Positions 39,717 to 57,529 of a stretch of 64,000 bases of DNA are shown one piece after another. The notes below the pieces were generated by a model that saw only the letters and a list, made by a program, of their open reading frames with translations, did no database searches and was not told the origin of the DNA. This stretch comes from a virus. Position 1 is the first letter of the stretch. Every line of letters starts with the position of its first letter. The stretch lies in the IMG/VR virus record IMGVR_UViG_3300042317_001497, one strand, 5' to 3'. A program made the translations under genes and the position numbers.

Positions 39717-39798
39717 CCTAAACCTATGTGGCATAACAACTTAGGATCATTATACTCCGCAAAATTTTATGTAACTCCTTATGCCACAAGGATTTATG
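39717..39798. repeat. Double-palindrome element A1
   Basis: cctaaac-c-tat-gtggcat-aac-a-acttagg + 24 bp + tgtaact-c-ctt-atgccac-aag-g-atttatg. Confidence 0.75.
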
Positions 39799-39947
39799 AT
39801 GATTTTTGACGCAAAGACCGTGCTGCAAAAATTTTTCTCATTTGGCATGAAATTATATTCGAAAAATTGCAAAGATTTCTCTTGAAAGCGTCGATAAATA
39901 CTGTATAATTAAAGCACAAAGAGAACGATAACGCAAAGGACAAGAAA

Positions 39948-40163
39948 ATGAACAACAACGAAATCAAGCTGGGAGATGTGGTGGTGTGGAACTTTGTGTT
40001 TGACGTTCCGGAAGAGGATGGTGTTGTTGTAGGGTTGGACGGGGATAAAGTTCAAGTTGAGTATGTTGGATACATAATTGGTGGTGGTTCTAAGGTATGT
40101 CGGGAATGGCTGAACGTTGACGAAATCATGCTGGAATCGGAATACAATTCGCAGGTTTTCTAA
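39948..40163 (+). CDS. Small SH3-like hypothetical protein
   Basis: IKLGDVVVW...GVVVGLDGDKVQVEY; has its own promoter and RBS. Confidence 0.7.
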   Translation: MNNNEIKLGDVVVWNFVFDVPEEDGVVVGLDGDKVQVEYVGYIIGGGSKVCREWLNVDEIMLESEYNSQVF

Positions 40164-40227
40164 GGTATTGACAAACACTTAGCCGATAAACTATAATAGA
40201 ATCAACACAAGAGAAAAAGGAAAAGAA

Positions 40228-40377
40228 ATGACCATTCAAGTACAACACACCATTCGCCGCCTAGTTGCACATCATGGATATTCCGCAACATTTGTTCAGC
40301 ATATGGGCGAAGGCATTAGCCTCTATAGCATTGGTGGAATTATGTATCGTATTCGTGGCGATGGTACGATTCTCTAA
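40228..40377 (+). CDS. Small hypothetical protein (49 aa)
   Basis: Promoter 40168-40197, AAGG RBS, stop just before A2. Confidence 0.6.
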   Translation: MTIQVQHTIRRLVAHHGYSATFVQHMGEGISLYSIGGIMYRIRGDGTIL

Positions 40378-40384
40378 AACTTGA

Positions 40385-40466
40385 CGTAAACTCTTACTGC
40401 TAAACGACTTACGACGAACGCGGCCGCAAAAATTTGCTGTAAGTACTTACCATATATAGACTTAGG
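40385..40466. repeat. Double-palindrome element A2
   Basis: cgtaaactcttactgctaaacgacttacg + 24 bp + tgtaagtacttaccatatatagacttagg. Confidence 0.9.
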
Positions 40467-40608
40467 GCTAATATAATGTTTAAGAGAAAATATTCTTTTG
40501 TTTTGGCATGAAATTATATTTGAAAAATTCCAAAAATTTCGCTTGCAACCTAAAGAATACTCTGTATAATGTCGATATAAGAGAAAAGGGAACGATAAAG
40601 AAAAGGGA

Positions 40609-40836
40609 ATGAAAATGATCACGCTGAACACTGTTGCTGAACTGACCAACTTCCTGAACAACAACGATATGCCCTCTCTGGTTGGAGAGGTTGTTTTCGC
40701 TGGTGATCTTCTCAGCCATGTTCGATCTCTCAACAATGCCATCAGTATCGACGAGGAAATCGGGTTTTGCGATGATGGTGGGGAGATTGTGATTGACGAT
40801 AACGGTAACGTTGTGAGCGATATGTATCTTCCGTAA
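40609..40836 (+). CDS. Small acidic hypothetical protein
   Basis: 75 aa; promoter and purine-rich leader. Confidence 0.7.
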   Translation: MKMITLNTVAELTNFLNNNDMPSLVGEVVFAGDLLSHVRSLNNAISIDEEIGFCDDGGEIVIDDNGNVVSDMYLP

Positions 40837-40894
40837 GGGTATTGACAAGCAAAAATTGATAGGTATAATAGGAAGAAAGAAAGAGAGAAAGAAA

Positions 40895-41044
40895 ATGCAG
40901 TTTGCTCTTGGTGATAAGGTGAAGGTTGACGGTAGGCTTGGACAGATCATTCTCTGGCATTTCGATGAGGGGAATATCTGGCACGTTGAGATTGACGGGG
41001 ATGAGTATGAGTGCTACGATGAGGATATGGAATTGATTTCCTAA
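40895..41044 (+). CDS. Small SH3-like acidic protein
   Basis: MQFALGDKVKVDGRLGQI...; has its own promoter. Confidence 0.65.
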   Translation: MQFALGDKVKVDGRLGQIILWHFDEGNIWHVEIDGDEYECYDEDMELIS

Positions 41045-41195
41045 AGAGGTAATAAGAATGTTTCTCACGTTTGACGATTTTTTGTTGTTGGGTGGTTTGC
41101 TCAGTTTTTGTGCTTTTATCACCTATACTGTGCATGAGGTGGGTAACGCTATCCGTTCTATGCTGGACATGGACAACTAAGCAAAGGAAAAGAAG

Positions 41196-41492
41196 ATGAA
41201 TCACTGTGAAGCTGTTAAGATGGTGAAGGGAAAGGGTAATAAGAATACCCGTAAGGTGGGCAACAATACCTATGCGGAAATTCTTCCTGATGGTAGCGTG
41301 GGCATTATGCTACATAGTACCTATGTTGTTAAAATTCATCCCGACAATAGTGCTACCCTCAATACTGGGGGATGGTATACTAGCACCACGAAGGATCGAA
41401 TCAACAAGTATTCGCCCGTGCGTGTGTATCAAAAAAGGGGTGAATGGTATCTGAACAACGGTACACCATATGAGGATGGTATGGTGGTGTGA
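41196..41492 (+). CDS. Hypothetical protein
   Basis: 98 aa; LHSTYVV...TLNTGGWYTSTTKDRIN pattern. Confidence 0.75.
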   Translation: MNHCEAVKMVKGKGNKNTRKVGNNTYAEILPDGSVGIMLHSTYVVKIHPDNSATLNTGGWYTSTTKDRINKYSPVRVYQKRGEWYLNNGTPYEDGMVV

Positions 41493-55478: not shown

Positions 55479-55649
55479 ATGCGTTATAGTGATGATTACG
55501 AACAGTATGATTATGACTATGATGAATTGGTAGAAAATGCCGATGATCTTGGTCTAGATGAAGAACCTTGGATGGATGAAGAAGAAGATGACGAGGTTCC
55601 TTCTTATGGAAAGAATTATTATCCTGACATAACAGAAGACGATTGCTAA
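55479..55649 (+). CDS. Extremely acidic, Tyr-rich mini-protein (56 aa)
   Basis: About 24 of 56 residues are D/E; has its own promoter. Confidence 0.75.
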   Translation: MRYSDDYEQYDYDYDELVENADDLGLDEEPWMDEEEDDEVPSYGKNYYPDITEDDC

Positions 55650-55654
55650 TTTTT

Positions 55655-55739
55655 GTGGATGCTTCTAGGTGGGACTAGACTCTTTTCTTTATCCTTTCTT
55701 TCTTTTCTTGAATAGCCGGTTCGAATCCGGCCATCCACA
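55655..55739 (+). ncRNA. tRNA-like RNA whose anticodon arm is replaced by a pyrimidine tract
   Basis: Acceptor GTGGATG/CATCCAC, D-like stem TCTAG/CTAGA and T-arm GCCGG-TTCGAAT-CCGGC are intact; the middle 30 nt are almost all C/T. Confidence 0.65.
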
Positions 55740-55744
55740 CTTAT

Positions 55745-56254
55745 ATGAATGTTTTGAGCCAAAAGCCCGATGATTTTCGTCGTACTCCAGACGGTAAAGT
55801 TATTCAAGGTGCTAGCCACACTTGCCGTGTGCTAAATCATAAAGAGCGTAATAAGATTATTATTAAGGCTGTTTGTGATCTTAGGAAAATTAAGGATCAG
55901 TTTGATACTATAGCTTGTTGTGGCGTAAGTGGTTTGATGGTTGTTCCACAGATCGCTGAACTTCTAGATAAGCATATTTTAATTATTCGCAAAAATGAAA
56001 GATGCTACAGTGAATTTAGAACTGAGGGCGTTGCTCCTTTTCAATATGTGGTTGTTGATGATCTTGTTTGCTCTGGGGATACGATAAAGAGAATACAGAA
56101 TACTATTAAGGATGAATACCCAAGAGCAATTTGTAAGGGTATTTATTTCTATATTCCAGACCAGTGTGTTTATCGGCCAGACGAGGATGGCTCTAAACTA
56201 TGCTTGAGGGATCTAAAGGCCCCGCTCCTAAACCTAGGCCACCAAAAGACTTAG
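55745..56254 (+). CDS. Type I phosphoribosyltransferase-fold protein
   Basis: IACCGVSG...ILIIRK...YVVVDDLVCSGDT (PRPP-binding loop). Confidence 0.8.
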   Translation: MNVLSQKPDDFRRTPDGKVIQGASHTCRVLNHKERNKIIIKAVCDLRKIKDQFDTIACCGVSGLMVVPQIAELLDKHILIIRKNERCYSEFRTEGVAPFQYVVVDDLVCSGDTIKRIQNTIKDEYPRAICKGIYFYIPDQCVYRPDEDGSKLCLRDLKAPLLNLGHQKT

Positions 56255-56308
56255 GACGAACCGGGGCGGCCCCGCCCGACGTAAGTGCTTATATACCAAC
56301 GACTTGCG
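56227..56308. repeat. Double-palindrome element A16
   Basis: cctaaacctaggccaccaaaagacttagg + 24 bp + cgtaagtgcttatataccaacgacttgcg. Confidence 0.9.
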
Positions 56309-56408
56309 TCACGAAATTTTTCCGCAAGTTTGCCCCTTGACACTGCCGATAATAGATGGTAGAATCAGCGTATCGGAACGAAGAATCAGTAACACGAAAG
56401 GGTTGATT

Positions 56409-57356
56409 ATGCCTGCTATGGTCGAAAAGATGATGTTTGTTGGTGCTACCCCTTGGCATGGTGAGGGTACGCAGCTCGATGAGAATCCCTCTATTTCTGA
56501 GGCGATTACCGCTGCTGGTCTGGATTGGGAAGTTGGTACGAAGCCGTTGTTTACGTCGGAAGGCGAGGAAGTCAACGCCAAGGCGACTTTCCGTAAGACC
56601 GATAATAGGGTGCTGGGAGTTGTGGGTCCGCGTTATACCCCTCTCCAGAATCAAGATGCTTTTGATTGGTTCCAGCCGTTTCTGGACGCTGGCGAGTGCC
56701 AACTGCACACCGCCGGTTCGCTCAGTGAGGGCGAGAAGGTTTGGGTGTTGGCTCAACTCAATCGTGCGAACAGCGAAATTGTTCCCGGCGATGAGGTGAG
56801 CAAGTTTATCCTGCTGAGTAACAGCCACGACGGTACAACGTCGATCCGCGTCGGATATACTCCGATCCGCGTGGTCTGCGTGAATACTCTCGCTGCTGCC
56901 CACTCCAACAAGGACAGCCAGTTGATTCGGATTCGTCACACACGCTCCAGCAAGACCAATCTGGATAACGTGCGAGACATCATGGATAATATCAACGTGC
57001 AGTTCGAGGCGACTGCGGAACAGTATAGGTTCCTCGCCTCTAAGGATTTCAATCAGAACGATATTCGTAAGTATGTCAAGATTCTGCTGGGGATTGATAA
57101 GACCCCGGACGAAGATATCAAGACTCGTACCCGCAATATCATGGATGAAATCTTGACGCTTGTGGAAGGCCCGAAGCAGAGTGCTACGAATGTTCGTGGA
57201 ACATGGTGGGCTGCCTATAATGGCTTCAATGAGTATCTGAACTATAGCAAGGGTCGCACGGTGAGCAATCGCCTCGACTCACTCTGGTTCGGACAGAATG
57301 GGGTTGATAACGTCAAGGCACTCAATACCGCAGTGGAGTTTGCGAACGCCGTCTGA
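56409..57356 (+). CDS. DUF932 / TIGR03299-like phage-plasmid protein
   Basis: PWHGEG...AGLDWEV...LGVVGPRYTPLQN...TAGSLSEG...NSHDG...TPIRVVCVNTL...IRHT; start reassigned to ATG 56409. Confidence 0.85.
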   Translation: MPAMVEKMMFVGATPWHGEGTQLDENPSISEAITAAGLDWEVGTKPLFTSEGEEVNAKATFRKTDNRVLGVVGPRYTPLQNQDAFDWFQPFLDAGECQLHTAGSLSEGEKVWVLAQLNRANSEIVPGDEVSKFILLSNSHDGTTSIRVGYTPIRVVCVNTLAAAHSNKDSQLIRIRHTRSSKTNLDNVRDIMDNINVQFEATAEQYRFLASKDFNQNDIRKYVKILLGIDKTPDEDIKTRTRNIMDEILTLVEGPKQSATNVRGTWWAAYNGFNEYLNYSKGRTVSNRLDSLWFGQNGVDNVKALNTAVEFANAV

Positions 57357-57381
57357 TCTTTTCGTGTCACGATGAAAAGGG

Positions 57382-57422
57382 GGAGGGCCGCGGCTGGGAA
57401 ACTGGCTGCGGCCTTCTCTTTT
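57382..57422 (+). terminator. Probable terminator after the DUF932 gene
   Basis: GAGGGCCGCGGC...GCTGCGGCCTTC stem followed by a T-rich tail. Confidence 0.6.
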
Positions 57423-57447
57423 GGTTGCTGCGAAACGGTTCACTAGA

Positions 57448-57529
57448 CGTAAGTACTTGCAACATAAGGACTTACGGCGAACCGGGCCGCGAAATTTTGT
57501 CGTAACTTTAGTATTCATAAGGACTTACG
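57448..57529. repeat. Double-palindrome element A17
   Basis: cgtaagtacttgcaacataaggacttacg + 24 bp + cgtaactttagtattcataaggacttacg. Confidence 0.9.

Follow-up and report, generated by a model that had tools for sequence, protein, structure and literature searches.

Paired palindromes between the early gene cassettes of an uncultured freshwater giant phage: a candidate protein docking platform

The stretch of 64,000 nucleotides of phage DNA analyzed here (IMG/VR record IMGVR_UViG_3300042317_001497, referred to at its full length as the window) carries seventeen copies of an 82-bp unit made of two palindromes, each copy standing between the end of one early cassette and the promoter of the next. 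The explanation that we favor, with evenly balanced confidence, is that the unit is a protein docking platform that forms a boundary or operator between cassettes. Each unit would offer double-stranded DNA with four 11-bp half-sites (consensus CGTAAGTCCTT), and the centers of its palindromes, 53 bp or about five helical turns apart across a GC-rich, weakly symmetric spacer, would lie on the same face of the helix. A sequence-specific protein may fill the half-sites cooperatively, giving a fixed nucleoprotein structure between the end of one early cassette and the UP element and promoter of the next. Such a structure could act as a boundary that blocks or insulates read-through from the many strong upstream promoters and/or as an operator that tunes or shuts off the adjacent promoter. 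The best candidate binder would be a conserved, phage-encoded helix-turn-helix (HTH) protein of 73 amino acids whose tail resembles an AT-hook and whose gene stands at the head of the array; alternatively, the binder would be an IHF/HU-type protein of the host. Since they are dispersed conserved repeats, the units and promoters may double as cross-over points for ordinary homologous recombination between phages, which would move whole cassettes. The data below show the anatomy of the units and its conservation, the missing RNA-type covariation, the confinement to one region, the exchange of cassettes at units and the synteny with the HTH gene; protein binding, the identity of the protein and the regulatory outcome are what we infer in this account. 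Among the readings offered by the first-pass annotation, which was made from the sequence without database searches, that of a cooperative tandem operator fits best.

A search of the window with the 29-bp palindrome pattern CGTAAGTNCTT-N7-AAGNACTTACG, allowing up to three mismatches, gave 14 matches compared with 0 in 100 shuffles, and under looser matching the palindromes paired at exactly 53 bp. Pattern matching and extraction recovered all seventeen 82-bp units where the first-pass annotation had placed them. Every one consists of a 29-bp palindrome, a GC-rich spacer and a second 29-bp palindrome; the spacer is exactly 24 bp long in 17/17 units, as had been claimed, and an arm-core-arm layout of 11-7-11 is found in 34/34 palindromes. 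Likewise, the reported recurrence of about 1.1 kb agrees with the measured spacing (mean, 1108 bp; range, 603 to 1958 bp), and on extraction core 1 indeed tends to read G....AT and core 2 AT....C, the two cores of unit 1 being exact reverse complements. A weight matrix built from the 17 units and run over the 64 kb with a cut-off of 25 bits detected no further site. All units are co-oriented, 17/17 scoring higher on the plus strand, and the reverse complement of each also scores well at the same position, so that the whole unit is nearly two-fold symmetric. The units are as follows.

39717..39798, plus strand: unit 1, the weakest copy (64 bits), after the S8 peptidase gene
40385..40466, plus strand: unit 2, located by weight matrix and extraction
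41523..41604, plus strand: unit 3, with an exact antisense TGGCAC-N5-TTGC at 41617-41631
42315..42396, plus strand: unit 4, with the stop codon of the upstream open reading frame (ORF) within palindrome 1
42918..42999, plus strand: unit 5, with an antisense TGGCAC-N5-TTGC at 43046-43060
43847..43928, plus strand: unit 6, with an antisense TGGCAC-N5-TTGC at 43937-43951
45091..45172, plus strand: unit 7, with an antisense TGGCAC-N5-TTGC at 45185-45199
46900..46981, plus strand: unit 8, at the start of the conserved backbone cassettes (families 4 and 6)
47826..47907, plus strand: unit 9, with a -35 hexamer 28 bp past the unit
48891..48972, plus strand: unit 10, with a -35 hexamer 28 bp past the unit
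50849..50930, plus strand: unit 11, located by weight matrix and extraction
51972..52053, plus strand: unit 12, located by weight matrix and extraction
52909..52990, plus strand: unit 13, adjoining the 3' end of tRNA-Asp (52836-52910)
54036..54117, plus strand: unit 14, with a -35 hexamer 17 bp past the unit
54985..55066, plus strand: unit 15, adjoining the 3' end of tRNA-Tyr (54904-54986)
56227..56308, plus strand: unit 16, located by weight matrix and extraction
57448..57529, plus strand: unit 17, the final unit of the array and the sole one with a palindrome whose arms are perfect

A lone third palindrome with four mismatches follows unit 17 at 57585-57613.

A search for the inner part of the unit in an exact 19-base form hit 55 stretches of IMG/VR contigs from related freshwater phages, and the weight matrix detected 302 units in them, about 1 kb apart. 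The relatives that carry units are 70 to 80% identical to the window in DNA. A DNA similarity search found no cultured phage close to the window phage, and its terminase is at most 25% identical to those of cultured phages. In five complete relatives (229 to 244 kb), all units and lone palindromes lie within a single promoter-dense stretch of 19 to 20 kb (161.3 to 180.6 kb in genome G001), with some 20 to 25 units per genome in a single orientation; a control search with the reversed pattern gave no matches in these five genomes. A sister clade with 170-kb genomes has the same array layout with variant arms, CGTAAA(G/C)TCTT, and among the clades with the 73-amino-acid protein the arms read CGTAAGTCCTT or CGTAAAGTCTT. 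The geometry, described in the first-pass annotation as invariant, is so in the window (17/17) and only nearly so in relatives, where the palindromes lie 53 bp apart in 274/289 pairs and spacings of 52, 54, and 49 bp are also found. A scan of bacterial and archaeal genomes for the motif yielded only chance matches and short phage contigs binned into genomes of discordant phyla, so the link to Planctomycetota that the annotation had wished to see checked could not be shown, and in none of the bacterial genomes searched was the motif a repeat of the host itself. An Rfam search gave no family match at the units.

We examined 271 distinct units for base-pair covariation, considering local hairpins, a long foldback, and all position pairs of the 82x82 matrix, and found none in any pairing model. 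The Watson-Crick fraction of each arm pair equals the expectation from column composition, folding palindrome 1 back on palindrome 2 does not improve pairing, and the pairs with the highest mutual information are neighboring bases only. Some positions are even mismatched in the majority of units, namely, positions 6 and 7 of palindrome 1 (A.C and C.A) and positions 8 and 9 of palindrome 2. The claim that arm mismatches follow a consensus instead of compensating each other is thus borne out. At position 6 the outer half-sites carry A or G, which gives A.C in palindrome 1 and G.T in palindrome 2, an asymmetry that a DNA site with two-fold symmetry should show but a single transcribed strand should not. 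The four half-sites, CGTAAACCCTT (palindrome 1, outer), CCTAAGTCCTT (palindrome 1, inner), CGTAAGTCCTT (palindrome 2, inner), and CGTAAGTCGTT (palindrome 2, outer), form a graded set that is mirrored around the center of the spacer, and the spacer itself contains the conserved pairs C31/G52, A33/T50, G38/C45, and G39/C44. Between orthologous units, identity is 0.83 to 0.96 in the arms, 0.76 in the spacer, 0.77 in core 1, and 0.51 in core 2. This combination of conserved sequence, conserved geometry, and unconstrained pairing points to units that are read as double-stranded DNA by a symmetric or multimeric protein and not as RNA hairpins. The preference of the first-pass annotation for DNA-protein recognition over an RNA stem is favored by the same lack of covariation and by the weak and inconsistent folds.

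An RNA-based explanation is an unlikely competitor. It holds that the units are modules of the kind known from T4-type phages as promoter-early stem-loops (PeSLs), which would need no dedicated protein: palindromes and spacer, folded within the transcript or as single-stranded DNA, would end or attenuate upstream transcription, after which the adjacent promoter restarts it. The units do occupy exactly the position of a terminator, right after stop codons or tRNA 3' ends and before the next promoter, and our scan of the window found no other terminator-like element between cassettes. In T4-type phages, PeSL stem-loops work in this way, often with G and C tracts (PMC2839356). In about half of the predicted folds the inner arms pair around the spacer. 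However, the mean folding energy is only about 5 kcal/mol better than that of shuffles (-23.7 versus -18.2 kcal/mol), the folds differ between units, the local palindrome hairpins appear in only 5 to 15% of them, and no U-tract follows the palindromes. No canonical terminator with hairpin and U-tract was found at the units in the window scan. A terminator consensus scan gave 19 sites compared with 13.4 expected, with no consistent overlap with units; the two matches that fall inside units are both weak, one on each strand. Besides the missing covariation, the mismatches G.G at 28/55 and A.C at 6/24 are the majority state, and an RNA hairpin does not require a spacer of exactly 24 nt across some 290 copies. 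We also considered, and rejected as a rule, a function in closing all three reading frames: 58% of the units do so compared with 28% of random windows, which is an enrichment only.

The setting of the units is that of a boundary between transcription blocks. For about 45% of units, the ORF ahead ends at or within the unit, its stop codon falling immediately before position 1 or as TAA/TAG at position 3, 18, 26, or 56. On the other side, a promoter follows essentially every unit (at least 9 to 12 of 12 consensus positions matched), in agreement with the earlier placement of each unit after the end of a gene or tRNA and ahead of a sigma70 promoter.

39882..57570, plus strand: span of the sigma70-like promoters, one after each unit and about 20 internal ones without a unit

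The region contains 99 sigma70-like sites against an expectation of 45; some 40 of the 99 are strong sites on the plus strand. An AT-rich, UP-like stretch of 28 bp, itself conserved, often lies between unit and promoter. In the window the distance from the end of the unit to the -35 hexamer is 12 to 116 bp, and sorted by cassette family, the distances cluster at 17 to 18, 27 to 31, 39 to 43, 51 to 55, and 60 to 63 bp, a period of about 11 bp.

Several other motifs accompany these promoters. Many early promoters (window, approximately 39890-57560) have a conserved (G)CCGATAA box between -35 and -10, as in the example TTGACA-nn-GCCGATAATAG-n-TGGTAGAAT. A second, small dyad of the type CCTTAC-N6-GTAAGG, with a half-site that resembles the unit arm, lies between some units and the -35 hexamer (window 42468-42487 and 43075-43094) and also in intergenic regions of a further sequence, L088. 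One cassette of about 600 bp (49035-49642) is free of ORFs and may specify a non-coding RNA; Rfam gave no family match for it. Several strong promoters, with -35 hexamers at 49001, 49177, and 49306, accompany this cassette.

Within the favored explanation, the strongest candidate for the protein that occupies the units is the product of the gene that opens the rightward block and lies 1.8 kb upstream of unit 1.

37716..37937, plus strand: gene of the candidate binder (73 amino acids), with a three-helix HTH and a basic C-terminal tail containing RGRP, a probable AT-hook

The 73-amino-acid protein has 379 homologues, 65 to 83% identical and all unnamed; in an alignment of 33 of them, helix 3 (T-A-M-x-RRQRRKL) and the tail (K-x-RGRP-x-K) are invariant. 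AlphaFold2, supplied with the alignment, predicts a three-helix bundle (pLDDT of about 94) with a disordered basic tail. The top Foldseek matches, all weak, are mostly to HTH DNA-binding domains (small-terminase N-domain, Myb, ArgR, GcrA, and homeodomain), and an atlas search with the two ORFs that head the block gave only a weak lead to GcrA (score, 0.84). In 5/5 complete genomes the gene is present in a single copy, on the strand of the array, 0.16 to 12 kb upstream of the first unit. Across 80 loci of the gene, no unit lies upstream of it; of the 40 loci whose flank extends for 6 kb or more, 24 have units downstream. This synteny is kept in the 170-kb sister clade despite its variant arms. 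Conceivably, the HTH would contact one block of the half-site while the AT-hook enters the adjacent AT-rich minor groove, an arrangement that would fit the two conserved blocks of each half-site, CGTAA and CTT. Pfam and PHROGs scans of 63 early ORFs gave no DNA-binding family, three backbone ORFs compared by sequence with solved structures yielded nothing useful, and no common DNA binder exceeded the threshold in the five complete relatives.

Several observations weigh against this explanation. The match of the tail to the Pfam AT_hook model (E = 0.05) is below the Pfam cut-off, Foldseek found no significant match of the modeled protein among solved structures, and none of the classical repressor families HTH_3, ParB, and HU is present in the five complete genomes. 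The co-occurrence of gene and array lies within one phage lineage and is not independent evidence, and nothing ties the candidate binder specifically to the units. As to the promoters, the variable distance between unit and promoter (12 to 116 bp) is unusual for a classical operator, the phasing of about 11 bp could come from shared ancestry of a unit-plus-promoter module and not from selection, and the approximately 20 internal promoters are equally strong in spite of having no unit.

Possibly the docking protein is not encoded by the phage at all. A host architectural protein of the IHF/HU type might bind instead and shape the DNA ahead of the early promoters by bending it sharply at two points 53 bp apart; we rate this as distinctly improbable. 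The sequence AA-N4-TTA is found in all four half-sites and is usually extended in the outer pair to CAA-N4-TTA, which is the conserved portion of the IHF consensus WATCAANNNNTTR. At least eight of nine positions are matched at that offset in 22% of units compared with 0.08% of background windows. A precedent for such an arrangement is phage lambda, in which IHF sites upstream of pL stimulate this promoter. However, agreement with the WAT part is poor (0.53, 0.30, and 0.19), the best-conserved element of the unit, CGTAAG, lies outside the IHF motif, and IHF sites are normally asymmetric. Moreover, the IHF of the host may differ in specificity from the consensus used, and the motif was present in no host genome searched.

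The units mark the places where relatives differ in gene content. When the inter-unit segments are clustered into families, a backbone order of cassettes emerges (5, 9, 0, 1, 2, 3, 4, 6, 16, 8, 7 ...), and against this order individual cassettes have been added, exchanged for others, duplicated, or relocated. For instance, one genome has family 96 between 0 and 1, the place between 1 and 2 may be taken by family 89 or 97, family 13 can precede or follow 0, and family 11 appears in three different contexts. The self-promoted cassettes proposed in the first-pass annotation are thereby supported, the units bounding cassettes that differ in presence and order among relatives. Alignment ends between relatives are enriched from -50 to +200 of unit starts. 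Within units, cassette 1 keeps the distinctive palindrome 1 and left spacer at its downstream end whatever comes next, just as cassette 2 keeps the right spacer and palindrome 2 that precede it. As the halves of a unit travel with the adjacent cassette, exchange occurs inside units. The switch points fall at positions 29 to 31, 35 to 47, 49 to 54, and 58 to 68, that is, at the edges of the conserved arms and in the spacer, and not in the 7-bp cores, where the annotation had suggested looking for them. In addition, a 1,059-bp indel between relatives that are 97 to 98% identical is bounded by a 60-bp internal promoter and ribosome-binding site (RBS) repeat that contains no unit (L050:6885-6944, L032:11874-12933). 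These spread junctions, together with the junctions at internal promoter repeats, point to homologous exchange at dispersed repeats, as described for the PeSLs of T4, and not to an integron-like mechanism.

A bolder form of the docking explanation, which we regard as a long shot, is that the HTH/AT-hook protein loads four copies onto each unit, serves as a roadblock or insulator between some 20 early cassettes, and, by pairing of units, guides the excision and exchange of cassettes without a classical recombinase. If true, this would amount to a protein-organized, integron-like cassette platform in a lytic giant phage.

It is very unlikely, in our view, that the units are sites of site-specific recombination, similar to integron attC or Xer/dif sites, at which an unrecognized recombinase of phage or host would cut the 7-bp cores or the spacer and move cassettes as circles. 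An attC site is made of two simple sites in inverted order, which the unit resembles. The 11-7-11 layout of arm, 7-bp core, and arm, the two inverted simple sites at the 3' end of a cassette, and the co-oriented cassette arrays are all shared with attC and tyrosine-recombinase core sites (dif, loxP, and att), and the gain, loss, and movement of cassettes between units whose halves segregate with the neighboring cassette would be expected. However, a serine recombinase and a Y1 transposase are absent from all five complete relatives, and the tyrosine recombinase family PF00589, for which the annotation had advised a search, is absent from four of them, with one sub-threshold match far from the array in the fifth (G004); no recombinase was found flanking the array in the window. 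Furthermore, the cores vary from unit to unit, from one palindrome to the other within a unit, where they are not complementary, and even between orthologues, as noted for core 2, so that recombining partners would lack matching overlaps. In the units the sequence is conserved and the pairing is not, which is the opposite of attC, each cassette has its own promoter, and there is no single fixed junction: intra-unit junctions are spread, and indels also occur at unit-free promoter-RBS repeats. The integron-like or tyrosine-recombinase reading of the first-pass annotation is not supported by these results. The five complete genomes do encode a protein of homologous recombination, RuvB, with a full homologue in G001 (L084:1450-2355; RuvB_N, E = 2e-47, plus the winged helix of RuvB_C). 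RuvB is the phage's own branch-migration motor.

Similarly improbable is that the units are selfish repeats, comparable to REPINs or miniature inverted-repeat transposable elements (MITEs), that have spread through the early intergenic gaps without a function for the phage. Doublets of repetitive extragenic palindromes (REPs), as in bacterial interspersed mosaic elements (BIMEs) and REPINs of bacterial chromosomes, can be likened to the units in that they are pairs of imperfect palindromes in inverted order, with fixed linkers, right after stop codons; some types bind IHF or gyrase. In contrast to these, the present units are found in a phage and in no host genome searched. The RAYT/Y1 transposase family (PF01797) is absent from the five complete relatives, and the units are confined to one 19-kb region in one orientation, with none elsewhere in 230 kb. 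Purifying selection acts on their arms and spacing throughout a clade with only 70 to 80% DNA identity, and no target-site duplications were seen at the units of the window.

Finally, it is hardly credible that antisense promoters of the sigma54 type fire leftward into the units and use them as enhancer or leader elements. Four exact copies of the -24/-12 motif TGGCAC-N5-TTGC are present in the 64 kb, where chance would give about 0.1, in all cases on the minus strand, 8 to 46 bp to the right of units 3, 5, 6, and 7 and pointing leftward into the unit; in relatives the motif is found near 74/276 units, mostly at an offset of 7 to 13 bp. This is only about a quarter of the units, all in the left third of the arrays, and the motif may be half of another operator dyad (TGCCA...TGGCA). 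The phage also lacks a sigma54 activator, as the weak match to Sigma54_activat (PF00158) in the complete relatives is RuvB.

Set beside known systems, the element appears most like a cross between a PeSL, in the sense of a boundary module with a promoter that serves as exchange point, and a dispersed operator or stoperator system; it does not pass the tests that define an integron attC, a recombinase core site, a REP/REPIN, and an intrinsic terminator. For T4-type PeSLs, homologous exchange between dispersed regulatory repeats has been described (Arbiol et al. 2010, PMC2839356; Comeau et al. 2014, PMC4122927). Like these, the units and their promoters are dispersed composite modules that bound small, mostly ORFan early genes in a hyperplastic region, they place a dyad with a GC-rich stretch ahead of a strong sigma70-like promoter whose upstream part is AT-rich, and they coincide with indel or replacement junctions between relatives. 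The dyads themselves differ. That of a PeSL is a simple, stable stem-loop of variable position that was shown to terminate transcription, whereas here a rigid 82-bp dyad of four half-sites with exact 53-bp spacing and no selection for pairing stands upstream of the promoter, in one orientation, with all copies in one block of the genome. The stoperators of Cluster A mycobacteriophages are sites for a repressor (PMC9283540, PMC6550527). Like stoperators and other dispersed operators, the units represent many copies of what would be one protein-recognition sequence, in short intergenic gaps and co-oriented with transcription. The P1 C1 operators and the conserved inverted repeats of phiC31 are further examples of dispersed phage operators. 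All of these are thought or were shown to stop or repress transcription, whereas for the present units binding is only inferred. Stoperators, moreover, are single, asymmetric 13-bp sites for a monomeric immunity repressor and occur genome-wide in a temperate phage, in contrast to four half-sites in fixed geometry, restricted to the early block of a phage that shows no lysogeny genes.

Early regions with functions in host takeover and anti-defense are the fastest-changing parts of large phage genomes, and little is known of their organization and regulation outside T4 and a few other model phages. New in this study are the covariation test on 271 units, the absence of a recombinase from five complete genomes, the map of intra-unit junctions, the antisense motif at fixed offset, and the HTH/AT-hook candidate. 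An uncultured lineage of freshwater phages thereby gains a defined and easily synthesized module, with four half-sites, five-turn spacing, and a candidate binder. Should binding be confirmed, this would show how dozens of very strong promoters stay insulated or are switched off together and would explain the exchange of cassettes as intact, self-expressing units. The module could also serve synthetic biology as a compact insulator-plus-promoter part.

The rest of the window is likewise phage DNA. Portal, terminase, head, and fiber genes lie on the minus strand (1 to 37.5 kb), followed from 38 kb on the plus strand by small genes, ten tRNAs, and one Pistol ribozyme. The array region (window 38000-58000) has a G+C content of 41 to 46%, compared with 30 to 36% in the flanks (the structural region and the DNA after 58 kb), and its GC skew is positive. 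The ten tRNA genes lie within early cassettes (window 52760-55425); no CCA is encoded by the tRNAs at the junctions inspected, and tRNA-Asp and tRNA-Tyr terminate exactly at the start of a unit. The Pistol ribozyme (window 52517-52579, plus strand; Rfam RF02679, 55.7 bits compared with a gathering score of 34.5) also sits within an early cassette, just upstream of tRNA-Arg and tRNA-Asp. At the opposite end, a minus-strand open frame of more than 4381 amino acids (window 3-13145) runs off the end of the window and presumably encodes a giant tape-measure or tail protein.

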